A model generated the notes under the pieces. That model did no database searches, had not been told where the DNA came from, and saw nothing but the letters and a program-made list of their open reading frames with translations. Shown here in pieces: positions 24,337 through 41,037 of a DNA stretch of 64,000 nucleotides. Origin of the DNA: Candidatus Kerfeldbacteria bacterium. GTDB lineage: Bacteria; Patescibacteriota; Patescibacteriia; UBA9570; XYC2-FULL-38-9. The translations under genes and the position numbers were made by a program. Position 1 is the first letter of the stretch. Each line of letters starts with the position of its first letter. The stretch is from assembly GCA_016182555.1 (NCBI GenBank), contig JACPGJ010000007.1:192053-256052 (forward strand). The letters are read 5' to 3'.

Positions 24337-24412
24337 GGTGGCCATGGTGAAACGGTTATCACGACAGTTTGTGGTACTGTCATTACGGGTTCAATTCCCG
24401 TTGGCCACCCCA
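24337..24412 (+). tRNA. tRNA-His (anticodon GTG) with encoded G-1 and CCA
   Basis: G-1 is opposite discriminator C73. Perfect acceptor GTGGCCA/TGGCCAC, D arm GTGA/TCAC, anticodon stem ACAGT/ACTGT with loop TTGTGGT, T arm ACGGG-TTCAATT-CCCGT. Confidence 0.9.
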
Positions 24413-24684
24413 AGCGGAATGATTATGTGCGATGAAGATGGAATCGAAAGGTTTTTGCAAGGAATACTGCACCTTTTGACCATCAAATGACAAGTTCTGA
24501 AATACCAATTTGATAATTTCTCTTTTTTGGTCTAGTTCAGAACCGATAAACAATTCTTTACTACGGGAAGCGATGTTTAGTATTGCTATAGCGTCGATAT
24601 AGTAACTTTCATCGGCTTTTTGTAGTTGCTCTAGCTTACTACGGTATTCGGTCTGCTTGGCAGTATTCGGTCTGCTTGGCACGA
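24407..24684. repeat. direct repeat copy 1 (278 bp), starting in the last 6 nt of tRNA-His; has a 19-nt internal tandem duplication
   Basis: Aligns with 40779-41037. The right ~150 nt look identical by eye; the left ~110 nt are about 85% identical. It encodes a minus-strand ORF fragment (...ELFIGSELDQKREIIKLVFQNLSFDGQKVQYSLQKPFDSIF...) nearly identical to the fragment in copy 2. Confidence 0.85.
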
Positions 24685-25216
24685 AACTGACTGCTTAATT
24701 TGTCGTACTGCTCCTGAGTAATCCACATGGCTTATCAAAACTGATAAATCAGTGACGGGTGTTCGAGATGAACTACAATCAGTTGTCGACAAAAACGACG
24801 CATTATACGTAGTTGACGTCACAAGTGAACCTTCAGCGTGGGTTGGTCTCGATAGCAATGTGAGCGCTTGGATTAAAAACAATTCCTAAGTTCAAATCGG
24901 GGGAAGGTTTCAAACCTTCCCCCACTCCAAGCACAACAATCATAAATATATAGCAAAAAGCATTCATTCAACGCCTTATGACGGAAAGTGGGCCGTCAAG
25001 CAAGCAAATAAAGCAAAACCACTATCAACTCATCGTACACAAGCTGCTGCAATTGCAGCTGGACGTGCAGAAACGAAACGACAACACGCTGAACATGTTA
25101 TACATGGTCGAAATGGTCAAATACGTAAGAAAAATAGCTATGGAAATGATCCTAAAAGAATAAAAGGCTAGGTAGAAAATTCATGGTTTAGGTAGTCCGT
25201 CACAACACTGCCTTTT

Positions 25217-25957
25217 TTATTTTACTTCTATCGTTTGCGCTCCCAACCAAGAAAGATAATATGCCTGCCGCATAGCATCTGCAATTGCTTTACTTTCAAT
25301 AATAACTGACATATTTTCAGCATAGTTCATGAAGGCCACTTTATTGTTATAGATATTTACTTCAATCTCTGGCCAAAACACATTACGAGGAACAATGAGT
25401 GTTTCCGCCAATTCTGATTGATCATACTTCTTATGTTTTGTATGCCACACTGATCCACTCCCAGCAATGCGCTTAGCATGTATGTTTAACTTCATGCGTT
25501 CCGAAATATAAGCGTGGTCTTTTGGAAATTGGTCAAAATAGGCATTCGTATTCCATTCTAAGATTTCATCTGGCCGCTCCCGCAAGGTATCATCATACAC
25601 ATTCTGAATCGCATGTTTTCCTTCATAAAAAACTATTTTCGGTTTGGTTTCACTTTTGTTATAGATCGCTTCTAACTCAGGAAGTGCGTGAGCAATTTTT
25701 TTCTGTAGCTCTGTAGCGAAGGATAGAAGTTTACTTGGGGATTCAGCAATATAGCGATATTTACCACGTACTTTAGATTTACCAACGATACCTTTTTTCA
25801 CCAACATCTCTAATATCGAATATGTGGTTGTACGTTGTAAATTGGCCTTTTTTGCAATATCTTGAGCAGAAGATAAGCCCATTTCTAAACTGGCAATATA
25901 GACTTTGGCTTCATTCTGAGAGAAACCCAACTGTTTAAGTAATGGTTCAAATTTCAT
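25217..25957 (-). CDS. TrmB-like transcriptional regulator (winged HTH plus C-terminal TrmB-type domain), island paralog 1
   Basis: N-terminal LKQLGFSQNEAKVYIASLEMGLSSAQDIAKKANLQRTTTYSILEMLVKKGIV matches the TrmB HTH. C-terminal block KPKIVFYEG...NIYNNKVAFMNY...IIESKAIADAM is shared with all paralogs. Start set at MKFEPLL. Confidence 0.7.
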   Translation of the reverse strand: MKFEPLLKQLGFSQNEAKVYIASLEMGLSSAQDIAKKANLQRTTTYSILEMLVKKGIVGKSKVRGKYRYIAESPSKLLSFATELQKKIAHALPELEAIYNKSETKPKIVFYEGKHAIQNVYDDTLRERPDEILEWNTNAYFDQFPKDHAYISERMKLNIHAKRIAGSGSVWHTKHKKYDQSELAETLIVPRNVFWPEIEVNIYNNKVAFMNYAENMSVIIESKAIADAMRQAYYLSWLGAQTIEVK

Positions 25958-26147
25958 ATTGTAAATTGATAAAATGACGAAACACATTTAGTCATTTTAA
26001 TACTATATAATACTTAATTTATAGTCAAATTTAGATATTTATTTGTTATTTTCGTCATTTTTGACGAAAAATTTATACATTATTTTTTCTATTATATACT
26101 TGTACGTTCCTCGGAATGAATTTGAGGAACAAGGAGGTAAATCAAAA

Positions 26148-26402
26148 ATGAAAAAGCACCTTTTATTCCTTCTGTTGTTGGTGCTCACTGCCTGTCCTAC
26201 CAAAACTTCTGATTTCAATAGGAGCAAGGAGGTAAAACCACCCACAACAGCAGGAGAATCAAGTCAATGGGTGAGGGAGCTATCCTATTCGTCTGCTCCG
26301 CTCATTGGCGATGCCTCTCGTTTAAAAACAGATACCAATAAATGCTACCTCGTAGTGAGAGGTGGACATGGAATCGCACTTGTAGAGACGCCTTGTCCTT
26401 AA
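26148..26402 (+). CDS. small lipoprotein (cargo gene of module 1)
   Basis: GGAGG RBS 8 nt upstream. MKKHLLFLLLLVLTAC lipobox signal peptide. Confidence 0.55.
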   Translation: MKKHLLFLLLLVLTACPTKTSDFNRSKEVKPPTTAGESSQWVRELSYSSAPLIGDASRLKTDTNKCYLVVRGGHGIALVETPCP

Positions 26403-26411
26403 TTAAAGGAA

Positions 26412-26480
26412 AACGGTTCGGCAGTACCAGCTGCGTCGAGAGCTTGGAGGAGCTTTCCGCACAAAACTGCTATTTTTTAT
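26412..26480 (+). repeat. conserved ~70-nt palindromic terminator-like element, copy 1
   Basis: AACGGTTCGGCAGTACCAGCTGCGTCGAGAGCTTGGAGGAGCTTTCCGCACAAAACTGCTATTTTTTATTT. A long imperfect hairpin (GGCAGT...ACTGCY) followed by a T-run, directly 3' of the + gene. Confidence 0.8.
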
Positions 26481-27280
26481 TTCAAATCTTTTTGAGTAAT
26501 TTCTTCTGAAACACTATCCCACATCATTTCAAACCACGCAAGGAATGTTCTATAAATAGTTGGGTTGTCAATCACCACAGTATTCAGATGTTGCGTGTAA
26601 TCAATAATAGCTACATGCCCTTCCCAAATGAGGGTATCAGTGTCCAGCTTCATATTTTCTGGCAACCATTTCACATGATGATATTCATGCAAACCCGCAT
26701 TTCGAAGATACTGCTTCCCCGCAGCATTGGGAATCATCATTCCTTTACGTAATACTTTCTGTATTTTTAACTCAGCAAAATTATCTTCAACAGCGGCATG
26801 CGGAAATGTTTTCGTCACTACTGCTAAATCACCAATTAAGTAAAGTGTTTTTTGTGCGTTGATAATTTCCCGATGCACTGCCAGAATTCCTTTTTTGCCT
26901 TCGAAAAAACGCACACCTGCTTTGTAGGCTGTACCAAATTTCATTTGATTAAACACATCCGCAACAGAACGAAATGCATTTTGTTGTTCCGTGAGTGCTC
27001 GTTTCTCTTCTTCCAAAATATCAATGACATGTTCAATCTGCTCTACTTGAAAATAGAGTTTATCATTTTCTGTAATTGAACTCACAAATCCTCGATGTTG
27101 TAATGATTGCAACAAATCATAAATTGATGAACGTGGAATATCACTTGCCTGTTTTGTTATTTCAGATGCTGTAGCTTTATTGAGCTGAATCAATACAAAC
27201 AGCACGGCAATCTCCCGTTGATCAAGCCCATACGCTTCAAGAATACGTTGTATTTCTTTTTGTCGAATATCCGTCGACAT
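26477..27280 (-). CDS. TrmB-like transcriptional regulator, island paralog 2
   Basis: HTH LDQREIAVLFVLIQLNKATASEITKQASDIPRSSIYDLLQSLQHRGFV. C-terminal block conserved with the paralogs. Confidence 0.7.
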   Translation of the reverse strand: MSTDIRQKEIQRILEAYGLDQREIAVLFVLIQLNKATASEITKQASDIPRSSIYDLLQSLQHRGFVSSITENDKLYFQVEQIEHVIDILEEEKRALTEQQNAFRSVADVFNQMKFGTAYKAGVRFFEGKKGILAVHREIINAQKTLYLIGDLAVVTKTFPHAAVEDNFAELKIQKVLRKGMMIPNAAGKQYLRNAGLHEYHHVKWLPENMKLDTDTLIWEGHVAIIDYTQHLNTVVIDNPTIYRTFLAWFEMMWDSVSEEITQKDLK

Positions 27281-27377
27281 ATATATTGATTATTATTTAA
27301 ATTCATTTTATATTTATTTGTTCTTTTTGTCAAAATAGTGCGACAAAAAGAATAGACTTTAACTCATGAGGTTTGTT

Positions 27378-28001
27378 ATGCGGATTTTGGTAATCGACGA
27401 TAACCAACATCATCTCAACTCAGCTAAAGAATTGTTAAAAGAGCACAAAGTCACTCTCTGTTCTACTGCAGACGAAGCAATTGAACTGCTTGAACCGCAG
27501 TATGATGATGTCATCTTTCATCGGCTTTGGTCAGAGAAAGGATGGGAAGAAGCTTCACAAGTGGCTCGCCTTCCCTACTGGGATGTAGTGCTCAGTGATC
27601 TCCTCATGCCTGCCCCAAAACGAAACCTGAGTTACTTTGGTGAAAAATTCATTGGGCAGGAGATGCCAGTAGGTTGGGCATTCGTGTTACGAGCTACACT
27701 CGAGGGTGCAAAATTTGCAGCCGTTGTGACAGCAACAAACCATCACAACCATCCAGCCTCAGCACTGCTCGATCCTCTTGGATCGGCATATTGGGAAGAT
27801 AATAGGGAAAATGCACCGAAGTTTACAATTAACGGTGCCACAGTTGGTTTCTATCATGCACCAATGATAGGTGTAGACACCGTTCCCTGTTCACACTGTA
27901 ATGTAACAGGGCGCACAGATAAAATCTGTTCTTTTTGTGAGGGCACAAAAAAGGAACAAGGAAAAAATTGGGCTCTGGTGCTTAAGGCGCTAACCTCTTG
28001 A
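27378..28001 (+). CDS. receiver-like domain protein with C-terminal DnaJ-type CxxCxGxG zinc finger (cargo, family member 1)
   Basis: MRILVIDDN...DVVLSDLLMP receiver-like N-terminus. Conserved HHNHPAS motif. C-terminal CSHCNVTG...CSFCEGTK. GAGG RBS before the second ATG. Confidence 0.6.
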   Translation: MRILVIDDNQHHLNSAKELLKEHKVTLCSTADEAIELLEPQYDDVIFHRLWSEKGWEEASQVARLPYWDVVLSDLLMPAPKRNLSYFGEKFIGQEMPVGWAFVLRATLEGAKFAAVVTATNHHNHPASALLDPLGSAYWEDNRENAPKFTINGATVGFYHAPMIGVDTVPCSHCNVTGRTDKICSFCEGTKKEQGKNWALVLKALTS

Positions 28002-28011
28002 AAAATATACA

Positions 28012-28080
28012 AACGGTTTGGCAGTACCTGCTGCGTTGAGAGCTTGGGAGAAGCTTTCCGCACAAAACTGTCTTTTTTAT
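28012..28080 (+). repeat. conserved ~70-nt palindromic terminator-like element, copy 2
   Basis: AAACGGTTTGGCAGTACCTGCTGCGTTGAGAGCTTGGGAGAAGCTTTCCGCACAAAACTGTCTTTTTTATTT. Confidence 0.8.
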
Positions 28081-28835
28081 TTCTCCCACATGTTCTTGAA
28101 CAACTCCCGCAAATTTCGTGCAAGAACAGCATCATGAATTTCCACCATATAATGCGGACGATCACGTGTTTTTACCATAATAATATAATCACCAATTACC
28201 CACAGACTCGCATCAAATTCACCTTTTCGTGTTGGTTTAACTAAGCGTTGCACATACTTCTCTCGCATAGCTCGCTCAATGTTTTTGTCGTTCGTTAAAA
28301 AACGGACTTTCAAATCTTTTGGCCCTTGCTGCCAAGTCCAGTCTATCCATCGGCCATAGTGCTCGGTAAATGAACTATCATGAAACCCCCACCATGTATT
28401 ATCTATTGCTTCTCCGCTCTCTTTCCAATGTTCATATTGTTTATGCAAATAGGTCGTCAGATCAGATTCTTCAATAACCTTGATTTTTGGTACTGAATAT
28501 TCTACCGCAGACATGATTGTTGTAATATTGCGGGAGAGAATTTGAGCTGCCTCTTTTTTCTTTTTGATTTGCTGCTCTTCTTTTGTTACCAAATCCAGTA
28601 ATGCTTTTGGATTACCCGCTACCAGATAGCGCACTTTGTTCCCAATATCTTCAGTAATCAAACCAAGTTGAATAAGCTTTTTCCCAATACTATACACCGT
28701 TGTTCTATTGATTCCCGTGAGCTTGGCCACCCGTGCTGGCGATATTTTTCCTGTCTGTTGCACAGCCAAAAAAACAGCTTGTTCTTGCTCATTAAAACCT
28801 AATGTACTAAAGAGTTCTTTTTCCATATATGGCAT
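28077..28835 (-). CDS. TrmB-like transcriptional regulator, island paralog 3
   Basis: HTH LGFNEQEQAVFLAVQQTGKISPARVAKLTGINRTTVYSIGKKLIQLGLI. C-terminal block conserved. Confidence 0.7.
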   Translation of the reverse strand: MPYMEKELFSTLGFNEQEQAVFLAVQQTGKISPARVAKLTGINRTTVYSIGKKLIQLGLITEDIGNKVRYLVAGNPKALLDLVTKEEQQIKKKKEAAQILSRNITTIMSAVEYSVPKIKVIEESDLTTYLHKQYEHWKESGEAIDNTWWGFHDSSFTEHYGRWIDWTWQQGPKDLKVRFLTNDKNIERAMREKYVQRLVKPTRKGEFDASLWVIGDYIIMVKTRDRPHYMVEIHDAVLARNLRELFKNMWEK

Positions 28836-29002
28836 ATTGCTACAAAATTAACATGTTGTTGGTATATCGTCAACGAATTTTATATTATTAGCTAAAATTA
28901 GCATAGAATAATGATTTATTATCTTTGACACTATAGCTTCTTTATTTTACGCTGTATAGTTCTGTTCTGGATAGCAAGCTTGAAAACTGTATGGGAGGAG
29001 AT

Positions 29003-29392
29003 ATGAAAATTGGTATTCTGACGTGCAATCACAATTGGTGGAGCAGTGATACCGCTAGCCTATTAAGCGGAATGCTGCCCTATTTAGCACCTCGAGAATT
29101 AGGAGGAGTTGAGAGCTATATTGAACTTCCTTGGAATGAAGTAATTCCAAAAGACGTCGATCTTGTCTTTTGTACTCTGTGCGAAACCTGCACAGAAGAG
29201 CCAGAGAATCTCAAAGCTCTAAAGCAACGAGGAGGGTATATAGCTATTTTTCATGAGTACAACGATTTACGTGCTCAGGTGATAGTAGAGCTGCATGACT
29301 ATCACACCTTCCGCATGCTGAAAGAAAAGTATGGTGTTACTAATCTCGAATTCCTTTATAGCGAATGGAGATTTTTAACAGCCAGAAAATAA
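29003..29392 (+). CDS. hypothetical protein (cargo of module 3)
   Basis: GGGAGGAG RBS before MKIGILTCNHNWW. No recognizable domain. Confidence 0.4.
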   Translation: MKIGILTCNHNWWSSDTASLLSGMLPYLAPRELGGVESYIELPWNEVIPKDVDLVFCTLCETCTEEPENLKALKQRGGYIAIFHEYNDLRAQVIVELHDYHTFRMLKEKYGVTNLEFLYSEWRFLTARK

Positions 29393-29423
29393 GGAGGAAT
29401 AATGTTCTATATCCGAGCAGGAC

Positions 29424-29470
29424 CAACGGTTTGGCAGCACCGATCAAAAGCTGCCTTTTTGTTTATTTTT
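29424..29470 (+). repeat. short variant of the conserved element (same 5' box CAACGGTTTGGCAG, simple hairpin plus T-run)
   Basis: CAACGGTTTGGCAGCACCGATCAAAAGCTGCCTTTTTGTTTATTTTTT. Confidence 0.65.
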
Positions 29471-30224
29471 TAAGTGTTTTCCAAAGAAGCGTATATATCA
29501 ACTTCTGCAATTGGACAAACTCCCGTGATTCTATCAGGACAGCCATTTTTTCTTTCCATGAAGCAATGAGCACTTTATCATTATAGATATTCACTTCTGG
29601 CGAGAATGTATGCTCTGGATCATCTAAAATAACCGATTCACGAAGTTCTGATTTATCATGCTTTGCGCGTTCAACTGATTTTTTATTTTTTGGCATAATA
29701 GCCCGAATTGATACCTTTGCTGCTGTACGACGCTTGTAATAGTCTGGGAAAAAATGTGGTAGTCCCTCGTGCATAGTTTCCACATTGGCATAGGCTAAAA
29801 TCGTTTCTTTAGCAGTAAGTGTATCTTCATATGCTTCTCGCATTCCTTTTTCTCCTTCATAAAATGTTACTTTTGGTTTTGTACTTTGCGGATGAATCAA
29901 CGAGGAAAGTTCTGGCAGAATTTGTTTTACCAGCTCCTGTTGCGTATTGATTTGCTTATTCATTTCCTCCCTTTCTCGTTCCAGATACTGAACTAAACGT
30001 TTAGGATCACCCGCATGAAAATAGATTTTCCCTTTCTTTTTGAATTTACTAATGAGTCCTTTCTTCATCAGACCTTCTAACACATCATAACAACTCGTAC
30101 GGTTAATATTCGACTTTTTACTAATATCGGTAGGAGTCGCTGAATCCAGCTCTAATAACGCTAAATAGACTGCTGTTTCTTTATCAGAGAACCCTAATTG
30201 CTCAAAAATGGTTGTGGATATCAT
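29463..30224 (-). CDS. TrmB-like transcriptional regulator, island paralog 4
   Basis: HTH LGFSDKETAVYLALLELDSATPTDISKKSNINRTSCYDVLEGLMKKGLI. C-terminal KPKVTFYEG...NIYNDKVLIASW...LIESREFVQL. Confidence 0.7.
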   Translation of the reverse strand: MISTTIFEQLGFSDKETAVYLALLELDSATPTDISKKSNINRTSCYDVLEGLMKKGLISKFKKKGKIYFHAGDPKRLVQYLEREREEMNKQINTQQELVKQILPELSSLIHPQSTKPKVTFYEGEKGMREAYEDTLTAKETILAYANVETMHEGLPHFFPDYYKRRTAAKVSIRAIMPKNKKSVERAKHDKSELRESVILDDPEHTFSPEVNIYNDKVLIASWKEKMAVLIESREFVQLQKLIYTLLWKTLKK

Positions 30225-30360
30225 ATATTTTGTGGAAAATATTTCGACAATATTAGTATATCAAATAAAGGATAAAATAGCAATATTTTTATACTTTGTC
30301 GGTTATAGTGTGTAAGTATTTTTTATTCTATGAGATACTACTGTGTTCTCGAAAGAGAGC

Positions 30361-30906
30361 ATGCACATTGAAACCATATCCATTCAGTTAAGGCACGGCT
30401 TCGCGATGTTGCGGAGTGGTCGTGAGCTACACTGGCTGAATGGGTATTACAAAAAACGTTGGGGTAGTATGCGGCCAACAGTAGCGCTTGAGTTTAATGG
30501 TACCAACAAGTGGGTGGGGACATTTAGTTGGCATCATAGTTTAGATAAGGTTGAAGCGAGTTTTAAAGTGGTTGTGACAGACTGGGGCAGTGAGTCTACC
30601 TGTTATAGTTTTGAGATAGGGTCTCAAAAGTGGGACTTATCACCTAAAGAACTGTGGCAGTATGGCAATGTTGGTAAGGATGATTATCAACAAGCACAGC
30701 AGAGGATGCTATACTTGATGTATAGTCAAACCAGGACTGCACTTCAGGCAGCAACATCTATGCCTGATTTTGACCTACAAGACCAGATCAAAAGAGGAGA
30801 TGCTAACCTGGAGGTGTTTAACAACAAAGTTTCCCTGAGGATGTTTGATAACGTTTGGGAAAGTGCGGTGCATTATACTATTCGTAAGCTGTATATCCCC
30901 TCCTAG
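30361..30906 (+). CDS. hypothetical protein (cargo of module 4), possibly frameshifted into 30845-31120
   Basis: No domain recognized. A second overlapping ORF (30845-31120) ends exactly at the downstream terminator hairpin. Confidence 0.3.
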   Translation: MHIETISIQLRHGFAMLRSGRELHWLNGYYKKRWGSMRPTVALEFNGTNKWVGTFSWHHSLDKVEASFKVVVTDWGSESTCYSFEIGSQKWDLSPKELWQYGNVGKDDYQQAQQRMLYLMYSQTRTALQAATSMPDFDLQDQIKRGDANLEVFNNKVSLRMFDNVWESAVHYTIRKLYIPS

Positions 30907-31130
30907 AAATTCGTGCCGCCTGTCACGTTCCCTCCTACAGGCATATCCCAGTGCCTACCTTTTAAAAGATGGATACTGGAATATCTATAGTGCTAAAGCT
31001 GGTTCTACTATCAACTGCTTTATCAAATTCATATTCACCTTCCAGTCAGTTTGGAGGTTCCTGAATACGTCCACTAAGGGACCCATGATGGGAAGAAGCG
31101 AGGCGAAAGCCTCGTTTTGATTTGTATTTA

Positions 31131-31167
31131 GAGAAGCTTTGCAAACAAAACTGCTTTTTTGTTATTT
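31131..31167 (+). repeat. partial copy (3' half) of the conserved element, preceded by an independent hairpin at 31100-31119
   Basis: GAGAAGCTTTGCAAACAAAACTGCTTTTTTGTTATTT matches the 3' half AGCTTTCCGCACAAAACTGC-Tn. Confidence 0.55.
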
Positions 31168-31906
31168 ACACATTCCATGCTACATAAAACAAACTTTTTA
31201 ACATTTCATGTATTCCTTTGCTTTCAATAATCACTCCAAAAAAATCTTCTTGGTATGAGAGAAAAGCTACTTTATGTGCAAATATTTTCACATCTCCGCT
31301 ATATAATGCGTGTTGATTTTTGATAATTTTGATTTCTCTGAGTTCATTTTTTGCAGAACTTGCCCACTCACCTGCTGTCTGATCATCATGTGTAATAATT
31401 TTGTTGACCACTTTTTTCCGTATACGTTCTTTAACATATTTGTCGAGGATTTCTTTTGGAATGTATTCATAAAAATTTTGCACTCCGATATACGTCAGAA
31501 TAGTATCGCCTGGAGAAACGGATGCAATAATATCATGATAAAACTTTTTCATCCCTATTGCTCCTTCATATAACAGAATGTTTGGTTTTGAACGTAAAAA
31601 ATTTTGATATTTTGCTAACTCTGGAATCATCTGGCGTACCGCTTCTATTTTTTCTTCTATCGCTTGCTCAAGATTACGAACATCATCAACAAAGTAATAT
31701 TTTCTCCCCTTCTGCTTTGTCACCGAAATAAATCCATTTCGCTGCATCTCAGGCAGAATATTATATAACGTTGTTCTTTTCAGATTACAGCGCTTTGCTA
31801 AATCAGTTGCCGTTATTTCTCCTGCCTCTAACAACGTGAGGTAAATGAGCGCTTCTTTATCAGAGAAACCCATATTCTCTATTAAGTGTTGCTTCTGTAC
31901 TCGCAT
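31166..31906 (-). CDS. TrmB-like transcriptional regulator, island paralog 5
   Basis: HTH MGFSDKEALIYLTLLEAGEITATDLAKRCNLKRTTLYNILPEMQRNGFI. C-terminal KPNILLYEG...VKIFAHKVAFLSY...IIESKGIHEM. Confidence 0.7.
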   Translation of the reverse strand: MRVQKQHLIENMGFSDKEALIYLTLLEAGEITATDLAKRCNLKRTTLYNILPEMQRNGFISVTKQKGRKYYFVDDVRNLEQAIEEKIEAVRQMIPELAKYQNFLRSKPNILLYEGAIGMKKFYHDIIASVSPGDTILTYIGVQNFYEYIPKEILDKYVKERIRKKVVNKIITHDDQTAGEWASSAKNELREIKIIKNQHALYSGDVKIFAHKVAFLSYQEDFFGVIIESKGIHEMLKSLFYVAWNV

Positions 31907-32099
31907 ATATTTATACTGTGTCTACATTTTTAGACAATATTCTAGTTACTATTTTTTACAAAAAATGCCTTAATTTACAGCCATAATAGTTATTCTTTCC
32001 ACTAGCATAATATAGAATAACAAAAAAATCAAACGCTATTTTTATTTTCATATAACGTGTAAATCGGCAATCACGCCTAGCCCATATCTGGAGGACATC

Positions 32100-32324
32100 A
32101 TGGACGGTCTGCTTTGGCTTATTGCTAATTTATTCCAAGCTCATCAGAAGGTTTCGGAAAGAACCGCGCGCATTGCTTCACTAGAAACTGCTTTATTGAC
32201 TGCTTCATCTGACGAAGAGAAAGAAGCAATCACAAAGCGAATTAATGAAATTCGTGCCGAGACCATGCACCTGGATGCTGGTCGCAAAGCAGTGCTCAGA
32301 GCAAATGGAAACCCTGAGAAGTGA
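32100..32324 (+). CDS. small coiled-coil protein (cargo of module 5)
   Basis: 74-aa helical ORF correctly placed between the divergent promoter and a copy of the element. Confidence 0.35.
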   Translation: MDGLLWLIANLFQAHQKVSERTARIASLETALLTASSDEEKEAITKRINEIRAETMHLDAGRKAVLRANGNPEK

Positions 32325-32366
32325 TTACCTGCTGAGGTACTTGCGTTCAATGTACCTAGACAGTAT

Positions 32367-33225: not shown

Positions 33226-33413
33226 ATATTTTTCTATAAATGTCTACGATTATTTACATCCAATTATACGCTATTTTATTAGTATAGTCAAACATTTTGT
33301 ATGTTTAACGTCTATAACCGTTGACGTTGAGCGGTTTTTCAGGTATTCTGTTCTGTTGATTGAGAATAGTTCTCATGAAACACGCACCTTTACAACCGAT
33401 AAAGGAAAAGATC

Positions 33414-34031: not shown

Positions 34032-34045
34032 GTAAAAAGGAGAAC

Positions 34046-34120
34046 CAACGGTTTGGCAGTATCCGTGCGTCGAGAGTTGTAGCACACAACTTTCCGCATA
34101 AAAACTGCCTCTTTTATTTT
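34046..34120 (+). repeat. conserved palindromic element, copy 6 (divergent stem sequence, same boxes)
   Basis: CAACGGTTTGGCAGTATCCGTGCGTCGAGAGTTGTAGCACACAACTTTCCGCATAAAAACTGCCTCTTTTATTTT. Confidence 0.7.
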
Positions 34121-34878
34121 CTCGCACTATTCCAAGCTAATTTCCAAATCATTTTCATGGTATTAGCAATGAGTTGGCTTTCAATGGTGACTGCAAACAC
34201 TTCATGGGTGTGATATGAAATCATAGACACAACATTGTCATAGCACATAATTTCACATTCAAAATTGTAGGTTGATGCTGGGAGTAATCGCGATTCACGA
34301 AATTCTTGTTTATCTCTACTATGAAAATCTACTGCTAATTCATCATCAGGAATCACAAGCTTGGCTAGTTTATTATTTTTTTTACGAGCAGGAATATACT
34401 CTTTCTGCCAAAAATGAATCAATGCTTTATCACGTACTTGTAATGATTCTATTCCTACAAATGCTTTCAGTTCATTTTCTTTCGCATTCAGTGAAGCACG
34501 ATATACCTCTTTTACTCCTTCAATTCCTTCATAATATTTCAACACTGGTTTTATCGCATCATGATTCATTCGTGTGACTAACTCTGGGAGCAGTGTATCA
34601 AACTGCTTCAATTTTTCTTTGAAGAGCTGCTTGAGCGTTGAAGGATGTTCCGCAACATACACTGTCTGCTTTCCTTTTTTTGATTGCGTGACAAATCGTT
34701 TTTCAATGAGATTATCGATCGTGTGATAGAGAGTTGTACGATTGATTTTTGTTTTACTGGAAAGCTGTAAAATAGACGATGAGCCAAGTTCAAGCAAGGC
34801 AAGATACAGTGCCGCTTCTTTATCTGTTAATCCATATTGTTGCAATGCTTCTTGAATCATGTTGACTATTTTCGACAA
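34114..34878 (-). CDS. TrmB-like transcriptional regulator, island paralog 7
   Basis: HTH YGLTDKEAALYLALLELGSSSILQLSSKTKINRTTLYHTIDNLIEKRFV. C-terminal block conserved. Confidence 0.7.
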   Translation of the reverse strand: MSKIVNMIQEALQQYGLTDKEAALYLALLELGSSSILQLSSKTKINRTTLYHTIDNLIEKRFVTQSKKGKQTVYVAEHPSTLKQLFKEKLKQFDTLLPELVTRMNHDAIKPVLKYYEGIEGVKEVYRASLNAKENELKAFVGIESLQVRDKALIHFWQKEYIPARKKNNKLAKLVIPDDELAVDFHSRDKQEFRESRLLPASTYNFECEIMCYDNVVSMISYHTHEVFAVTIESQLIANTMKMIWKLAWNSARK

Positions 34879-35032
34879 ATATTAAAACTAAATTTAAGCT
34901 AATATAAATAACTTTATCCATAAATAAGAGTAAAATATATTATATCTTGTTTATAAAAATAGTCAAATATTTGTATGAATGGTAGTGTTGTTTGTTCCTC
35001 AATAACGAGGGGCACAACAGGAAGGATCTTTT

Positions 35033-35488
35033 ATGCTTAGGCTTGTCGAAATGTTCAAAATTGAAGTTGATTCCACTATCAATTTTGAACGGGCACATTT
35101 TTTTCACAATCAAAAAGCGTTTCTTCAGTGCCTACCAGACGTGGAGAAAAGATTTCCACTCAACGACGACCGGGGAAAGGTGGAAATATTCATCTATGAG
35201 GTAACGGCTGAAGAGATGACGAATGATCAACTCAACGAGGAATTGTTTCGAAACCACTGGCGGATGGCTGGAAGCAGAATCGGCCTTTCGCTTATGTCTG
35301 ATCAACAGATCAGATGGCGAATGCGAGAAAAATACCCCACGGTATTTTTTACTGAAACATGGCATGACGGAAATGTGCCAAGACGGCTCGCTTTTTGTGA
35401 AGGGATGCATAAGTTTGGCACCATGCTGGGAATAATCCCAATGGCGCCAATCAGCAAAGGAGACAAATTTCTTGTTGTAAAGGTGTAG
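35033..35488 (+). CDS. hypothetical protein (cargo of module 7)
   Basis: 151-aa ORF followed immediately by a copy of the element. No recognizable domain. Confidence 0.4.
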   Translation: MLRLVEMFKIEVDSTINFERAHFFHNQKAFLQCLPDVEKRFPLNDDRGKVEIFIYEVTAEEMTNDQLNEELFRNHWRMAGSRIGLSLMSDQQIRWRMREKYPTVFFTETWHDGNVPRRLAFCEGMHKFGTMLGIIPMAPISKGDKFLVVKV

Positions 35489-35494
35489 GATCAT

Positions 35495-35562
35495 CAATTT
35501 AGCAGTACCTGTTACGTTGAAAGCTTGGAGGAGCTTTCTGCAACGGTACTGCTTTTTTTATT
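35495..35562 (+). repeat. conserved palindromic element, copy 7 (compensatory changes keep the long stem)
   Basis: CAATTTAGCAGTACCTGTTACGTTGAAAGCTTGGAGGAGCTTTCTGCAACGGTACTGCTTTTTTTATTA. Confidence 0.75.
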
Positions 35563-35743
35563 ACTTAAAAAATAGTAATAGCTTATAATTGCTCCTAATT
35601 TAGGTTGAACTATACATTAAAAGTTTGGTTCATAAAACACATTCATCGATTCAACTCTTGATTTTCTCGCTTCAAAAAAAACAGGCTCGTCAGATATAAT
35701 ATCCTCGGAGCCTTTATTGGATCGGCTATTTGAGCATATCCGA

Positions 35744-36193
35744 TCATACGTATGCGCGTAACAGAATTCCAACTTCCTTCTCTATCTTTTCCTTGAAAGT
35801 AGTATCAAGGTGAAGGTACTGTTGCCGACAAGCTCGTATCGTACCCTTGATATCACCAAGTACGTACACTGTAATCGTTTCATCTGTGGGAGGAGCACAA
35901 CCAATAAGGGAAGATACTCTGCTCAGATTTTCGATACCAATTTCAATTTGGTTTTGAGCACAGATACCAAATATACTGATGATAAGCTCGATAGCCTTAC
36001 GAAATGACTTGGGCTTATGATGATGGTGAGCCAAAAAGGCTGCATCAACCAAGTTTTCCCACTGCACAATAGTAGGAGGATGTTTGTCATATTTCTTTGC
36101 ATGCTCATCAACCATGTGAATAAGCTCTCGCAAAGTGGTCTCTGGATCGATCCCTTTGAAACTCAGTAGCTCTTGGTCGATATTCAGGCTCAT
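35744..36193 (-). CDS. hypothetical protein (partner of the plus-strand TrmB paralog 8)
   Basis: 149-aa ORF divergent from 36369-37133. No domain recognized. Confidence 0.4.
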   Translation of the reverse strand: MSLNIDQELLSFKGIDPETTLRELIHMVDEHAKKYDKHPPTIVQWENLVDAAFLAHHHHKPKSFRKAIELIISIFGICAQNQIEIGIENLSRVSSLIGCAPPTDETITVYVLGDIKGTIRACRQQYLHLDTTFKEKIEKEVGILLRAYV

Positions 36194-36368
36194 CTTTCTC
36201 TCCTTCTAACTACGTTACACTGTTTGATTACTCAAGGCACATGCTTATCCTTCCATTTTTCTATATGTATTTAAATATACTAAAAATATATTTTGCCTAT
36301 ACTTAGTGTAAAAATTGACATAATTAAATTCTGTTGACAAAAATAATGACAGTAGATAGTGTAATAAT

Positions 36369-37133
36369 ATGTCTATAGAAAAAATGTTAGAACAATTGGG
36401 ATTAGAGCAAAAGCAAGCACTCGTCTACCTTACATGCCTCCAACTTGGTAAAGATAGTGCGTTTCATATTGCTGAAAAATGTGGCCTGAAACGTTCAACC
36501 GTATACATCAAACTAAATGAACTCAATATAAAAGGATTAGTACAGATTACAAAAACATCAAAGGCAAAATTGTATCAGGCTGTTTCTCCAAAACGATTAT
36601 TACAACAAATAGACTTTAGAAAAAAACAGATTGAAGAATCACTCCCCCTGTTGCTTTCTCTGTATAAAGATGAGAGTCAAAAACCGAATATTGAAATATT
36701 TGAAGGGAAAAATGCACTTGAGCAGATGAATAAAGAAATATTCCATTATATCCAGCAGAATCCCACCGAAGAAATCCTTTCGTTTGGAAGAATTGATTAT
36801 CTTGAACGTTATTATGAAAAAACATTTAGCAAATGGGTAAAGCAAGTACAATACAAACAATTTCGAACTCGCCAGATATTTAATAAAGGTGCTACTGAAA
36901 CAGCTCTTGTTAAAACATTACAAAAAAATGCTTCCGCTCAACACGATGTACGATTTGTTGATGAAGAATTATTTTCCAATGACAATGTTATTTGTGGAGA
37001 TACCATGTATATTTTCTCTATTGTAGAAAATAACCTATTTGTAATTGTGATCCATAATCAAGAAATTATACAGACCTATAAAGCTTTCTTTGATTTAGCG
37101 TGGAAAGGTATTAAAAAAACCCCACTCTCCTAA
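36369..37133 (+). CDS. TrmB-like transcriptional regulator, island paralog 8 (inverted orientation)
   Basis: HTH LGLEQKQALVYLTCLQLGKDSAFHIAEKCGLKRSTVYIKLNELNIKGLV. C-terminal KPNIEIFEG...FVIVIHNQEI. Confidence 0.65.
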   Translation: MSIEKMLEQLGLEQKQALVYLTCLQLGKDSAFHIAEKCGLKRSTVYIKLNELNIKGLVQITKTSKAKLYQAVSPKRLLQQIDFRKKQIEESLPLLLSLYKDESQKPNIEIFEGKNALEQMNKEIFHYIQQNPTEEILSFGRIDYLERYYEKTFSKWVKQVQYKQFRTRQIFNKGATETALVKTLQKNASAQHDVRFVDEELFSNDNVICGDTMYIFSIVENNLFVIVIHNQEIIQTYKAFFDLAWKGIKKTPLS

Positions 37134-37180
37134 AAGGAATAGCTATGTATATCGTCTTAACTTGGGTAAAACCAAAATTT

Positions 37181-37954
37181 TTACTTTACTTTATTCGGTA
37201 ATGCATTCCAGACAAGGTTAAATAACGACGTCATTGAATCTGCTAACGCACTATCTTGAATAATAATGCCTGTCGGATGTTGGGTATTCCAGCTAATCAA
37301 GGCAATTTTATTTTTATAGACGTCAATTTCAATTTTGAAGGGATACTTCTGCGCATTAAATAATTTCATCGTGCGATACTCTTCTTTCTTTTTTGCGTAC
37401 TGTTTAGAAATCGCATTATCTGGAGCAATCCAGCGAATAGGAATGTGCTCTTTCATGCGTTTTGCAATAAATTGCTTTTCATGATGAGGAAGAATAGCCA
37501 GCATATCTTCTCCTGAGGAGATAGTAAGAATTTCTTTATCTGGATTTTTATCGAGCTTCATCGTTAGTAAAATATCACGAAATATATTTTCTACTCCCTC
37601 TTTTCCCTCAAAGAATTGCATACGCGTTTGTTGATCACCTGTCATAGCCATATTGAGTAATGGCAGAATTTGACGAAGATCAGTGAGTAAATCTTCAAAT
37701 CGAAATACAATAGACTCTGGTGATTCGGCAGTATACACTTTTCGCTTGCCTTCCAGATGATGAGTAATGAATCCTTTTTTTTCTAACTGCTCTACCAAAA
37801 TATTGACCGTACTGCGCTTTATTTTCGTACTCTCAGTAATTTGAGAAATGAATAAACCGTACTTGCTTTGAAGCAATGCAAAATAGATGCTCACTTCAAC
37901 ATCTTTTAGGCCTAATTGTCGTAATAATGAAGCAACGTCAGGAATGAGTACCAT
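37181..37954 (-). CDS. TrmB-like transcriptional regulator, island paralog 9
   Basis: HTH LGLKDVEVSIYFALLQSKYGLFISQITESTKIKRSTVNILVEQLEKKGFI. C-terminal KIEIDVYKNKIALISW...IIQDSALADSM. Confidence 0.7.
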   Translation of the reverse strand: MVLIPDVASLLRQLGLKDVEVSIYFALLQSKYGLFISQITESTKIKRSTVNILVEQLEKKGFITHHLEGKRKVYTAESPESIVFRFEDLLTDLRQILPLLNMAMTGDQQTRMQFFEGKEGVENIFRDILLTMKLDKNPDKEILTISSGEDMLAILPHHEKQFIAKRMKEHIPIRWIAPDNAISKQYAKKKEEYRTMKLFNAQKYPFKIEIDVYKNKIALISWNTQHPTGIIIQDSALADSMTSLFNLVWNALPNKVK

Positions 37955-38058
37955 AGAAATTTAACAAAAAAATTAACATTTTGATACTATTTTAACAATA
38001 ATCTATTATTTTGTCTAGCACCTTGAAAACAATCTTAGCAAAAGAAAAGGAGGACACT

Positions 38059-38457
38059 ATGAATATCAAGCATGTTCTTGTTCTTGAGGATGATAAGGAC
38101 TTAATCGATCTCTACAAGAAATCTCTATGGGAAATGCTCCTTTCCGATAGTATTGTTCCTACTATGGCCTGTACCGTACATTCAGCCATATCTTGTGCCC
38201 AAGTGAGGGTCGATGTTGAACAACCATTTCATCTTGCCATTCTTGATTATTCCATTCGGAATGATCCGCAGAATGGAAACGATGCCGCCAGAATCATCAA
38301 GGAAATATCACCTACAACACGCATTGTTGGTAATACGGGTGGTAACCCACTGGTTTTCGATCGACGCTTCGTTGATAAGGTGATGCGAAAAAAAATCCGC
38401 AACTGGATGGAAATGATGCTTGCTATCGATGACCATAACCTTGGAGGAATACCATGA
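38059..38457 (+). CDS. receiver-like single-domain protein (cargo of module 9, first gene)
   Basis: GGAGG RBS. MNIKHVLVLEDDKDLIDLYKK...LAILDYSIR. Translationally coupled (ATGA overlap) to the next gene. Confidence 0.5.
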   Translation: MNIKHVLVLEDDKDLIDLYKKSLWEMLLSDSIVPTMACTVHSAISCAQVRVDVEQPFHLAILDYSIRNDPQNGNDAARIIKEISPTTRIVGNTGGNPLVFDRRFVDKVMRKKIRNWMEMMLAIDDHNLGGIP

Positions 38458-38999
38458 AGATTTTGATTATGGATGACAATCCACTTCACCGTGCTGCTGC
38501 ACAAGCTCAATTGAATGATCATGAGCTGACTGTAGTGAGTACATACGACGATGCTCAGGCATTGATTGGGAAAAAGCACGACTTCGATGTTGTGCTTGTC
38601 GACCTGCTCATGCCACCAAGCAAAAAAAATCTCAATTCCCAAGGAAAGAGGTTCACAAGAAAGGAGATGCCAGTTGGGATCTTTCTGGCATTGTTGGCCG
38701 CACGATTCGGTGCCAAGTATGTTGCCGTGGTGACAGATGCTGGACATCATGACCATCCAGCCTCAACCTGTTTCGATGCATTCAACCCTTTTGATCGGCA
38801 CAACGTGCATAATCCAAATGCACCACAACCGTTCAAGCTCAATGATGCAAAGGTCATTCTGTGCAACAACTGCATCGACTACTTCTACGGTGATGATCTC
38901 TCTCGGCAAATGGCATATGGCCAGTACAACACTGAAAAGGGAAAAGTTATTGCGGTAAAAAACTGGCGTTTGGTTCTGGAGGCACTTTTGCAAAGTTGA
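38454..38999 (+). CDS. receiver-like domain protein of the HHDHPAS family with a C-terminal CxxC (family member 3)
   Basis: MKILIMDDNPLHR...DVVLVDLLMPPSKKNL...GHHDHPAS...CNNC. Clear homology to 27378-28001 across the receiver-like region. Confidence 0.6.
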   Translation: MKILIMDDNPLHRAAAQAQLNDHELTVVSTYDDAQALIGKKHDFDVVLVDLLMPPSKKNLNSQGKRFTRKEMPVGIFLALLAARFGAKYVAVVTDAGHHDHPASTCFDAFNPFDRHNVHNPNAPQPFKLNDAKVILCNNCIDYFYGDDLSRQMAYGQYNTEKGKVIAVKNWRLVLEALLQS

Positions 39000-39011
39000 A
39001 TAAGCAGGATG

Positions 39012-39082
39012 CTTGGTTTGGCAGTACCAGTTGCGTTGAGAGCTAGAGGAAGCTTTCCGCACAAAACTGCTTTTTTTATTTT
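39012..39082 (+). repeat. conserved ~70-nt palindromic terminator-like element, copy 8
   Basis: CTTGGTTTGGCAGTACCAGTTGCGTTGAGAGCTAGAGGAAGCTTTCCGCACAAAACTGCTTTTTTTATTTT. Confidence 0.8.
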
Positions 39083-39195
39083 GTGTAAACCCTATCAATT
39101 ATCTTATAACAACTATTATCTAAATTAAGGGCTAAAATAAGCTAATATTAGTAACTTTTACTCCTTTCTTATAATTTCTTATAACTTTAATACTC

Positions 39196-40623
39196 CTAAA
39201 AATTTGCTTCGTATGAAGCACCTCGTGTTTCTCCTAGCTGATGAATTAAGCCCATCTTTTGCATCTTGGCTAAATCATAATTAATGGTTGGACGTGGAGT
39301 ATCGGTGAGAATCTGTTCACATTCCTTTGCAGTGATTCTTTTATTTTCAATCAAATAATTCCAAATAGCTACTTGTCGCTCATTTAAACTACTCAGTTTC
39401 TCACCCATCAATATCACCTTAAAACTATTTACGGTATTTTTAAATATTGGAGGGATAAGATTCCACTGTTTCATTGTATTAAACACAATATCAATTCCTC
39501 TACCATATTCTTCCAGATAATCCAATTCTTTCAGCCGTGCAGCAATCATCTCATTTCTACTTGCTTGGGCATCTTTGATATTCTCTACGGTCACTCCAGG
39601 TGGCAAAGAGCCTGGATTAAACACTTCGATACGATCTTCAAATATATTTACCTGGGTATAGGTTTCAGTAATTCTGTAATCACGATGAATAATAGCATTT
39701 GCAACGATTTCACGAATAGCTTTTTCAGGATATTCATATTTTTCTACTCTCTTTGTGCCAATAATTTCAGCACTCCGTTTAATATTCCGTAATACAAACT
39801 TCTGTATTGCATCAATTTGTGTATCAAGCGTGCCATCAATATCCATTTTATCAATGATATCTGTTGCTACATTCGATCCTTTGTAGCGAACACATCGCAC
39901 AATATACCGACTAAAGTTTTGTTTGTTTTGTGGACGGTCTTTAGCAAAAATAAGAAATCCTCCAACAGTAGGCAATTGCTCACCATCAAATGTATCTACA
40001 ATTCCCAAATTCTTCATGAGTTCAAAATTCACATCTTCAATAACAATGTCACGATGAGTACGTTCACTGCTGCGTTGCACTAATCCAAGTATTTTTTCTT
40101 TCGACAAACCATCTAGTGTTGTGTCTTCTGCTTTTGTAGTATCGAATTTTAATTTTTTTGAGTTATCGATCAAGTGTCGCATCTCCTCTTCTGTCATTGT
40201 TCGATCCGTATTTCCATCTCGAATACAGGCACCTGAAGGCAATCCTTTTGGCTTGTAATAGCATGGCTTAAATTGATCAGGGCATTCGGGAATATAGACT
40301 GCTAATAATGTTTTTCCATCTCGTTCAATAATGTGATATGCAGGGCGAATAGTAAAACTCATTTCATTATTCACAAGGTCACCAATCTTTTCTTGTAGCT
40401 GGGCAATATCTGTTATTCCAACAACTTCCATTATCTTATCCTCTTTATTATCAACCACACCAAAAACCATCAACCCACCACCTGGCTTATGCGAAAAAGA
40501 AGAAACAGTTCTCCACGTCGTTGATGGACGACCTCCTCGTGCATCTTTAAATTCAACACTGATCGTTTCTGAAGAACGATTGAACGCTTCATCTATTAAT
40601 TTTTCTATCTCTGATATAGTCAT
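39196..40623 (-). CDS. putative ATP-dependent DNA-binding regulator (AlbA_2/Schlafen-like N-terminal domain, HATPase_c_4-like domain, C-terminal wHTH; RecG-C-terminal-like family)
   Basis: The architecture matches this family. N-terminal part: SEIEKLIDEAFNRSSETISVEFKDARG. Middle: REIVANAIIHRDY. C-terminal HTH: ERQVAIWNYLIENKRITAKECEQIL. Start set at MTISEIEKL. Confidence 0.6.
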   Translation of the reverse strand: MTISEIEKLIDEAFNRSSETISVEFKDARGGRPSTTWRTVSSFSHKPGGGLMVFGVVDNKEDKIMEVVGITDIAQLQEKIGDLVNNEMSFTIRPAYHIIERDGKTLLAVYIPECPDQFKPCYYKPKGLPSGACIRDGNTDRTMTEEEMRHLIDNSKKLKFDTTKAEDTTLDGLSKEKILGLVQRSSERTHRDIVIEDVNFELMKNLGIVDTFDGEQLPTVGGFLIFAKDRPQNKQNFSRYIVRCVRYKGSNVATDIIDKMDIDGTLDTQIDAIQKFVLRNIKRSAEIIGTKRVEKYEYPEKAIREIVANAIIHRDYRITETYTQVNIFEDRIEVFNPGSLPPGVTVENIKDAQASRNEMIAARLKELDYLEEYGRGIDIVFNTMKQWNLIPPIFKNTVNSFKVILMGEKLSSLNERQVAIWNYLIENKRITAKECEQILTDTPRPTINYDLAKMQKMGLIHQLGETRGASYEANF

Positions 40624-40778
40624 AAAATCTTTTCTATTTGGCTGCAGTATACAAAAATAACCCCTTCTCCACAAGGGTAAGAAATAGTGAGCTGGAGGGT
40701 GGACTACTATATATCAAGTGATAGGCCGTATAAGTTATTCGCTTGCTGTAATCCAGTTCTAACTTCGTCTACTATGCG

Positions 40779-41037
40779 ACCCCAAGCGGAATGATTATGT
40801 GCTAAGAAGATGGAATCGAAAGGTTTTTGCAAAGAAAACTGCACCTTTTGACCATCGAAGGACAGGTTCTGAAGTACCAGTTGGATAATTTCCCTTTTTT
40901 GGTCTAGTTCAGAACCGATAAACAATTCTTTACTACGGGAAGCGATGTTTAGTATTGCTATAGCGTCGATATAGTAACTTTCATCGGCTTTTTGTAGTTG
41001 CTCTAGCTTACTACGGTATTCGGTCTGCTTGGCACGA
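40779..41037. repeat. direct repeat copy 2 (259 bp)
   Basis: Aligns with 24407-24684. Begins ACCCCAAGCGGAATGATTATGTGC, as copy 1 does at the tRNA-His 3' end. Contains a 72-aa ORF fragment (40707-40925, minus) that is paralogous to the fragment in copy 1. Confidence 0.85.

Follow-up and report, generated by a model that had tools for sequence, protein, structure and literature searches.

Recombinase gene remnants at a tRNA-His gene point to degenerate stacked islands in a Candidatus Kerfeldbacteria genome

In a 64,000-nt stretch of the genome of Candidatus Kerfeldbacteria bacterium (contig JACPGJ010000007.1; the whole stretch is hereafter called the window), two direct repeats bracket about 16 kb of DNA next to a tRNA-His gene. 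An initial annotation of the window had interpreted this segment as an accessory island integrated at the tRNA. Here, we show that the repeats represent the 3' ends of two large serine recombinase (LSR) genes. In our view, two related LSR elements were probably acquired successively at the tRNA-His gene and both then decayed, which would make the locus a composite of degenerate stacked islands. The younger island (24413-40778) carries an array of TrmB-like regulators and the older one (40779 to ~43.7 kb) a TOTE primase-helicase gene and AbiE genes. Of the initial interpretation, the core idea of an accessory island integrated at tRNA-His stands, but we abandon the repeats as attachment (att) sites or anonymous flanks, the second copy as the outer edge, the link to a tyrosine recombinase and the tRNA fragment.

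The direct repeat and its junction with tRNA-His

The two direct copies of about 260 bp described initially were recovered as a 259-nt repeat at 24404-24662 and 40776-41034 with 95% identity (repeat search; MAFFT agrees). Copy 1 (24404-24686, plus strand) consists of an ungapped part (24404-24662), a 19-nt tandem duplication and five more shared nucleotides. The duplication comprises two units of GTATTCGGTCTGCTTGGCA at 24644-24681, with 24644-24662 repeated as 24663-24681, and without it the repeat measures 259 nt counted from the A of ACCCCA. Copy 2 extends over 40776-41039 on the plus strand. All 11 mismatches fall into the first 115 nt, and the probability of such clustering by chance is ~1e-4. 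The final 144 nt are identical, in agreement with the ~150 identical nucleotides estimated by eye for the right part, but the left part had been underrated: it is 90.4% identical over 115 nt rather than ~85% over ~110 nt.

Copy 1 does begin, as had been noticed, inside the last 6 nt of an intact tRNA-His (GTG) with an encoded CCA (24338-24412, plus strand; ARAGORN, Rfam with 60 bits, and the sequence itself). The tRNA end ACCCCA (24407-24412) is the core that it has in common with copy 2, and the identical start reported for both copies, ACCCCAAGCGGAATG, was found in each of them. Copy 2 is preceded by GCGACCCCA, the tRNA counterpart of which is GCCACCCCA; sharing between copy 2 and the tRNA 3' end is limited to ACCCCA, with 8 of 9 nt matching GCnACCCCA. 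A displaced tRNA 3' fragment, as tyrosine-type integration would leave at the far end, was not found by Rfam at E<=10, and the tRNA fragment claimed for the near side was not detected on either side (Rfam E<=10; ARAGORN). A short core without a displaced tRNA fragment is expected for a serine recombinase. The true recombination core is just the 6-9 nt common to the tRNA 3' end, and the length of the 259-nt repeat is the extent of integrase gene that survived deletion, not an att duplication.

Remnants of two recombinase genes

The minus strand is open in both copies and encodes ...AKQTEYRSKLEQLQKADESYYIDAIAILNIASRSKELFIGSELDQKREII(K/Q)LV(F/L)QNLSFDGQKVQ(Y/F)SLQKPFDSIF(I/L)AHNHSAWG. Beyond this shared peptide, the frame of copy 1 enters the tRNA antisense, whereas the frame of copy 2 enters 23 non-tRNA codons. 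A word-index search showed that the repeat open reading frame (ORF) is annotated as HYV32_03460 in a 'Candidatus Kerfeldbacteria bacterium' metagenome-assembled genome (MAG) and returned eight short relatives, several of which also continue into tRNA antisense. An exhaustive profile search with the repeat peptide yielded 2615 relatives; among the best 150 matches, most are short LSR fragments. Full-length relatives (485-540 aa) contain Resolvase, Recombinase and Zn_ribbon_recom domains (Pfam) and match the repeat peptide only at residues ~390-515, their extreme C-terminus. The rest of the LSR gene, including the N-terminal Resolvase, Recombinase and zinc-ribbon domains, is absent from the window, in which tblastn with full-length LSR queries found only C-terminal fragments, two of them. 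A search of PDB sequences with the LSR-tail profile gave no match. Since full-length LSRs match at the repeat and the window holds nothing else of the gene, both copies are, by homology, the 3' ends of two LSR pseudogenes and hence coding DNA rather than an att duplication. The earlier statement that no integrase lies inside the repeats is misleading, as the repeats themselves are integrase remnants.

The proximal fragment (24407-24722, minus strand) comprises the last ~105 codons of its gene, is frameshifted by the 19-nt duplication and continues in frame into the tRNA antisense. The distal fragment (40779-41039, minus strand) retains the last ~87 codons and is joined at ~41035-41039 to the truncated TOTE gene. 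An apparent extension of its LSR homology to 41075 in tblastn was judged to be due to chance, the stretch being the in-frame RPYQ helicase motif of TOTE. No functional integrase is left at the tRNA-proximal end, and because both LSR genes are reduced to these terminal fragments, we regard the islands as relics. The 11 differences between the copies include 6 synonymous changes and 4 conservative replacements (K/Q, F/L, Y/F, I/L). Differences of this kind imply that two LSR alleles diverged while functional and under selection, and the identical 144-nt tract points to later gene conversion or homologous recombination.

The 69 nt that adjoin copy 2 (40710-40778, minus strand), which we term the P-arm, are not derived from the tRNA; here, the LSR frame encodes WGRIVDEVRTGL.... 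The non-tRNA tails of LSR relatives share the motif W[GR]xxx[DE]x[FIV]R[TN], which is also present on a full-length LSR (P0085) without a tRNA within 3 kb. The tail of copy 2, WGRIVDEVRT, fits this motif that is seen on LSRs not joined to a tRNA, and on this ground P-arm and copy 2 together form a putative attP-like junction, of the kind that would arise if a later element ended against the recombinase end of an earlier one.

Related loci in other genomes

In a recurrence scan, for which each GTDB species was represented by a single genome, nine loci were found; their annotations are Saccharibacteria, Dojkabacteria or unclassified bacteria. At five of the nine, LSR and tRNA-His are convergent and overlap with their 3' ends, two of these LSRs being full length (515 and 504 aa), and at one the LSR 3' end abuts tRNA-Gly. 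Every LSR-tRNA junction carries ...TGGGGT, the complement of the tRNA terminus, which encodes W-G. This recurrent junction and the 6-9 nt core are consistent with the serine-integrase mode of recombining attP with attB, in which the crossover spans 2 nt and the sites have little sequence in common. In three of the nine loci (L001, L007 and L008) an LSR fragment lies 2-9.4 kb from tRNA-His and runs into a non-tRNA tail. L001 has a second full-length LSR with ~25% identity directly against the tRNA, and L007, which is a complete genome (CP129477.1), has a remnant of that second type at the same place; no second LSR was seen next to the tRNA in L008. L001 and L007 share the architecture of the window: their two recombinase genes point the same way, the first adjoining the tRNA and the second lying at a distance from it. 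Stacking at tRNA-His is thus a recurrent feature of this LSR family.

The islands of related LSRs also carry defence genes: Dcm, EcoRII, Vsr and a DUF4143 ATPase in L003, an MmeI-like type IIG enzyme in L001, DUF262 together with a type IIG enzyme in L007, and GmrSD in L098. The TOTE and AbiE genes of the window fit this pattern.

These loci allow us to assess whether a single island was present whose LSR 3' end was duplicated in place by segmental duplication or unequal crossing-over. An identity of 95% with 144 identical nucleotides would be compatible with a recent duplication. However, both copies have their left edge precisely at the att core, and the sequence beside copy 2 is neither duplicated tRNA nor random but the non-tRNA tail typical of the family. 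Moreover, the differences appear to stem from purifying selection and not from pseudogene drift, and the two-LSR architecture recurs elsewhere with unrelated LSR pairs. We therefore consider an in-place duplication highly improbable.

LSR genes at tRNA-His elsewhere likewise decay while retaining their 3' end. In L005 (9759-10348) an internal deletion fuses residues ~1-86 to ~398-513, and in L004 (9980-10357) the gene is reduced to its last 125 codons. The CCA of tRNA-His is encoded in L014 (928-935, CACCCCA), as in the window, and is absent in L066 (5012-5020, CACCCAG). Junctions of this LSR family always read CACCCCA, and the elements may supply or require the encoded CCA.

Composition and comparison with host relatives

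The base composition of the island is deviant, with a GC content of 0.386 in the younger and 0.363 in the older part compared to 0.435 in the left and 0.428 in the right flank, and the tetranucleotide distance approximately doubles over 24.4-43.7 kb. The interior had rightly been called unusually AT-rich, but the AT-rich region is not bounded by the repeats: the deviant signal passes copy 2 and ends at ~43.7 kb. By composition, the older island with its TOTE and AbiE genes reaches to that point. Copy 2 is thus read here as the putative junction of the younger island with an older, decayed one and not as the outer edge of foreign DNA.

Metagenome loci with a 70-73% identical CCA-adding enzyme keep synteny with the left flank of the window. 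A Xer gene adjoins the gene of the CCA-adding enzyme in L012, L014 and L066, and NYN and further genes are conserved in L012 and L066 as well. To the right of tRNA-His, L014 (with the same CACCCCA end) has a terminator and a gene with the Fic motif HPFREGNGRT (seen by eye), and in L066 the tRNA is followed by a terminator and a 497-aa gene, with a lone TrmB-like gene at a distance of 2.7 kb. Judged from these loci, the DNA right of tRNA-His appears to be lineage-specific. The synteny also bears on the tyrosine recombinase at 19857-20828, which had been pointed out as the nearest one to the repeats, 4.5 kb away. It scores 232 bits with XerD and 231 bits with XerC, compared to 137 for the integron integrase, and is a XerC/D-like housekeeping gene that stands beside the gene of the CCA-adding enzyme in relatives and is unrelated to the island.

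Proposed history of the locus

In the scheme that we favor, the LSR gene would occupy an end of the element and be read in the direction of the attachment site, with the crossover core inside its reading frame. Its codons W-G (TGG GGT) complement the tRNA terminus ACCCCA, and integration would join the LSR 3' end to the tRNA, which would stay intact. An older element with the TOTE primase-helicase and AbiE would have integrated first. A related element of ~16.4 kb (now 24413-40778) would then have entered between the tRNA and the older element, catalysed by the LSR or through homologous recombination in the LSR 3' sequence common to both, leaving the attP-like junction at 40710-40790 that combines a new P-arm with the old LSR 3' end. 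Later deletions would have taken ~1.2-1.3 kb of each LSR gene and immobilized both islands. The order of these events and the mechanism of the second entry are what we infer from the present arrangement.

The mechanism of the second entry deserves particular attention. It is established from LSR biochemistry that attL is not a normal target of these enzymes, and a second site-specific entry therefore needs either relaxed specificity or homologous recombination. Although unusual for an LSR on attL, such an entry may have taken place: site-specific stacking is implied by L001 and L007, the two LSRs of which are too different (~25% identity) for homologous recombination. Alternatively, the second element could have entered via a RecA-dependent (Campbell-type) crossover in the 144-nt tract, between its LSR gene and the resident remnant, resulting in the same topology. 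Besides the reluctance of LSRs to act on attL, the perfect 144-nt tract beside a 115-nt tract with 90% identity would agree with this route, and, as the route predicts, the repeat stops on its right side where the resident fragment is cut off and fused to TOTE. On the other hand, site-specific tandem entry followed by gene conversion yields the same final sequence, and homology cannot explain the tandems of L001 and L007. Overall, we regard the Campbell-type crossover as rather unlikely.

Apart from the biochemistry of attL, several observations weigh against two successive integrations. The dyad symmetry of the att arms was no better than in shuffled sequences, and a search for P-arm similarity at the outer end of the older island gave nothing above shuffles. 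The younger island contains no intact LSR, recombination directionality factor or replication/transfer module, and its mobility is therefore a historical inference only. The relatives L014 and L066, which have neither an LSR fragment nor the regulator array at tRNA-His, are too distant (~70-73% protein identity) to represent true empty-site alleles, and no such allele was seen. In other Patescibacteria, regulators of the same family neighbour receiver-like genes in what look like core contexts, and one such regulator follows tRNA-His in the relative L066, so that part of the array could be native. Finally, the window comes from a short-read MAG, in which sequences could, in principle, be misjoined through an exact repeat of 144 nt.

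The last two points correspond to distinct alternatives. According to the first, the whole array would be native chromosomal DNA of Patescibacteria and the LSR fragments unrelated flanking relics. Pairs of TrmB-like and receiver-like genes are indeed present in core-like neighbourhoods of other phyla-level lineages, e.g. NYN...Xer-TrmB-REC in L096, and one member of the array has 60-82% identical orthologs in many lineages. Yet the array is enclosed exactly by a junction of the attL type and one of the attP type, deviates in GC and tetranucleotide composition and has no counterpart 3' of tRNA-His in the nearest relatives. The orthologs of the member in question (29463-30224) are single genes, and of the two loci that were examined, one (L011) provides a mobile/defence context. 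A native origin of the array thus seems improbable to us. According to the second alternative, the assembly would link different loci or strains through the exact repeat, the length of which is about that of a read. The contig crosses both copies with distinct flanks, however, and the same architecture is found in the complete genome L007 and in other assemblies, which makes an artefact highly improbable. Two successive integrations followed by decay remain our preferred explanation.

The older island

Signs of decay are evident in the truncated TOTE gene and the frameshifted AbiEii of the older island, as they are in the 19-nt duplication of copy 1. The gene at 41003-42145 (minus strand) encodes a truncated AEP-TOTE primase-helicase (Pfam PF22548, E=9e-86), which retains the primase domain but of the helicase just the beginning (RPYQ), after which the LSR fragment follows in frame. 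AbiEii is split into two overlapping frames on the minus strand (42155-42538 and 42417-42851; Pfam profile positions 6-58 and 129-222), and AbiEi follows at 42808-43587 on the same strand (Pfam, NCBIfam). The truncated primase-helicase and the AbiE genes reported for the far side are therefore real, but they do not include an intact pair of AbiEi and AbiEii, i.e. an AbiE type IV toxin-antitoxin system, because AbiEii is a frameshifted pseudogene. A by-eye resemblance at ~43640 (TATGCAATACCCA) was considered as the outer end of the older island and dropped.

The regulator array and other cargo of the younger island

The LSR remnant of copy 1 is followed by a DUF2188-like frame on the plus strand (24977-25171; Pfam PF09954, E=1.8e-18, profile positions 8-62 of 62) that has no ATG, GTG or TTG start and is probably a 5'-truncated remnant. 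Then, nine TrmB/TrmBL2-like winged helix-turn-helix (wHTH) regulators with small genes extend over 25217-38999 on both strands (ORFs, Pfam PF01978, paralogy). Eight regulators are encoded on the minus strand (25217-25987, 26477-27280, 28077-28835, 29463-30224, 31166-31906, 32437-33225, 34114-34878 and 37181-37954) and one on the plus strand (36369-37133). The small genes lie on the plus strand (26043-26402, 27366-28001, 28991-29392, 30343-30906, 32100-32324, 33360-34031, 35033-35488 and 38011-38457/38454-38999), except for one on the minus strand (35744-36193). Each regulator diverges from its small gene across 55-190 nt. The claim that these regulator/cargo modules are found nowhere else in the window proved correct, TrmB-like modules being confined to 25.2-38.0 kb.

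Three regulators that were tested matched PF01978 with E-values of 2e-15, 2.5e-14 and 1.3e-8, a fourth has a precomputed PF01978 match, and the other members were assigned by paralogy. The proteins (~250-265 aa) align over their full length to archaeal TrmBL2 (PDB 5bqt, E=1.4e-4), their best solved relative. The C-terminal sugar-binding domain of TrmB proper was not found; Pfam gave no match past the HTH. The nine regulators are mutually just 20-35% identical, and orthologs of the regulator at 29463-30224 with 60-82% identity occur across many Patescibacteria lineages, singly in both of the two loci examined. Taken together, this degree of divergence and the orthologs elsewhere suggest that the array is a collection of old paralogs and not the product of a recent local amplification.

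The small genes starting at 27366, 33360 and 38454 encode paralogous atypical receiver-like proteins, and the one at 38011-38457 was read as receiver-like by eye only. An AlphaFold model of one receiver-like protein (pLDDT 90.7) gave weak matches to receiver domains (TM ~0.35, best E 8e-4). Except for such weak receiver-domain matches, neither Pfam nor PADLOC returned anything for the small cargo genes. Receiver-like homologs in other Patescibacteria are also located near TrmB-like genes. An inheritance of regulator and receiver-like genes as fixed pairs was considered and rejected, as the partners found elsewhere are no closer to the paired regulators than to other paralogs. Each TrmBL2-like repressor would control the small gene that diverges from it.

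Candidate partners for orphan receivers are encoded outside the islands. A second low-GC stretch of the window (51-56 kb, GC 0.32-0.36) holds genes of two seven-transmembrane (7TM) receptor proteins (49700-51988 and 54312-56096), both with a HisKA_7TM domain and one with a histidine-kinase ATPase domain. The gene between them (52073-52702) encodes an autoinducer-synthase domain (LuxI-like, PF00765, E=5e-12), which is unusual for a Kerfeldbacteria genome. The 7TM kinases could partner the orphan receiver-like proteins of the island.

A further feature of the array is a conserved 78-nt element on the plus strand, which the repeat search detected five times (26405-26482, 28005-28082, 32361-32438, 35486-35563 and 39005-39082) against zero expected matches, and nowhere else in the window. 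By folding, it consists of a conserved hairpin of ~62 nt and a T-run. The elements have sharp edges, sit after small genes or between convergent genes and look like intrinsic terminators. With 68-86% they are conserved far above the flanking genes, the proteins of which are 20-35% identical; selection, conversion or spread may account for this conservation. No Rfam family corresponds to the element, and it was absent from the 97 related loci compared and from viral contigs. Since viral contigs contained no relative of the LSR tail either, there is no sign that the elements at tRNA-His are phages.

We also considered whether the 78-nt repeats could be part of an integron and rejected this reading: there is no IntI, only five elements occur in the ~14-kb array of nine modules, and their form is terminator-like. 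No IntI stands beside the array, the only tyrosine recombinase being XerC/D-like, and an attC site does not follow every cassette, the R''/R' consensus having been checked by eye only.

The last gene of the younger island (39196-40674, minus strand) encodes a putative regulator with AlbA_2 (Schlafen-like) and HATPase_c_4 domains (Pfam), for which PADLOC reported partial matches to pAgo-associated models. An exact-protein look-up of its 492-aa product gave no record.

Comparison with known systems

Genomic islands linked to tRNA genes are textbook knowledge for tyrosine integrases. For serine integrases, the survey by Mageeney et al. (2020) identified t(m)RNA genes as the target in 14 of 297 cases, terming this use previously unreported and in need of experimental proof (PMC7192596). 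Tandem arrays that retain remnants of integrases have been described at tRNA genes (PMC7192596; bioRxiv 10.1101/2020.12.28.424599), and an LSR was found in 27 of 937 tycheposons and related cryptic elements (bioRxiv 10.1101/2020.12.28.424599). The locus described here resembles the tandem islands of the Islander/TIGER type (PMC7192596) in its intact tRNA with foreign DNA 3' of it, a tRNA-proximal integrase, older elements pushed outward, integrase remnants, deviant composition and, as far as rather distant relatives can show, absence from related genomes. It differs in having a serine rather than a tyrosine integrase, a terminal core of 6-9 nt, no displaced tRNA fragment and a recombinase frame that crosses the core. 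Stacking at tRNA genes, fragmented integrases, primase/helicase genes and niche or defence cargo are shared with the tycheposons of Prochlorococcus as a likeness of architecture; the host phylum is another one, both integrases are dead, and the younger cargo is a regulator array.

In the SCC/SCCmec elements of staphylococci, paired ccrAB or ccrC recombinases, which are LSRs, insert at the 3' end of the conserved gene rlmH (orfX) without inactivating it, and repeated insertion builds composite islands with short direct repeats. Insertion by an LSR at the 3' end of an intact gene and composite islands would thus be common to SCC/SCCmec and the present locus, in which the target is a tRNA instead of rlmH (orfX). 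The split integrase of SSV1 and the integration-dependent immunity of the mycobacteriophages BPs and Brujita are cases in which attP lies inside a gene and integration alters the end of the protein. Similarly, the crossover here would fall inside the element's own reading frame and the integrated and free forms would differ in their C-terminus, but the exchange would concern no more than the terminal ~20 residues of a serine recombinase. The conservation of the LSR tail may reflect a DNA-level constraint on the att arm. In regard to the cargo, the regulators resemble TrmBL2 of Thermococcales (PDB 5bqt, 5box) in length, the N-terminal TrmB wHTH, the full-length alignment and the lack of a TrmB sugar-binding domain. 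In contrast to TrmBL2, they are bacterial (Patescibacteria) and form a cluster of nine diverged paralogs, each with a divergent small gene, and their DNA binding is predicted.

Tandem islands at tRNA genes are hence known as such; what differs here is the class of recombinase, and the new aspect is a Patescibacteria family whose members consistently target the end of tRNA-His and have a reading frame that crosses the core. The window and the nine related loci point to a sizeable family of serine integrases in Patescibacteria that builds stacked islands at tRNA-His. As a tentative extension, this LSR family might be Patescibacteria-wide and target the extreme 3' terminus of tRNA-His (occasionally of other tRNAs), with integration swapping the last ~20 residues for ones encoded by the tRNA antisense, possibly as a sensor of the integrated or free state. 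Its elements might ferry defence genes and, here, a bank of TrmBL2-like repressors and orphan receivers among episymbionts with very few other known mobile elements. We consider this broader scenario possible, with the odds somewhat against it. The locus offers a concrete attB/attP pair for testing, and an LSR tail fragment beside tRNA-His could serve as a marker when mobile DNA and defence islands are sought in the reduced and poorly understood genomes of these bacteria. In the window itself, the locus is a dead relic, and its main added value is the unusual cargo of regulators and receivers. Still, the 144-nt identical direct repeats could permit RecA-mediated loss of 16.4 kb.

Neighbouring genes

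The gene at 23856-24332, which ends 5 nt before tRNA-His, encodes a Cys-rich protein. It corresponds to the HNH endonuclease of the initial annotation; the gene is present, but its HNH motif is weak (Pfam E=0.006, NCBIfam 9e-4). A gene for an AAA_14/DUF4143 ATPase (20971-22134) is located between those of Xer and the CCA-adding enzyme. As the latter two are directly adjacent in L012, L013 and L014, the ATPase gene looks like a separate insertion. Its homologs accompany an LSR island in L003 and a TrmB-like gene in L010. Further to the left, 14515-18993 encodes a 1492-aa protein with CarboxypepD_reg and fn3 repeats that was read as a surface protein and has no counterpart in L012, where the neighbouring genes lie close together. 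In relatives, 4-5 kb of different genes separate tRNA-Arg(TCT) from tRNA-His, and the window has an extra tRNA-Arg(CCG).

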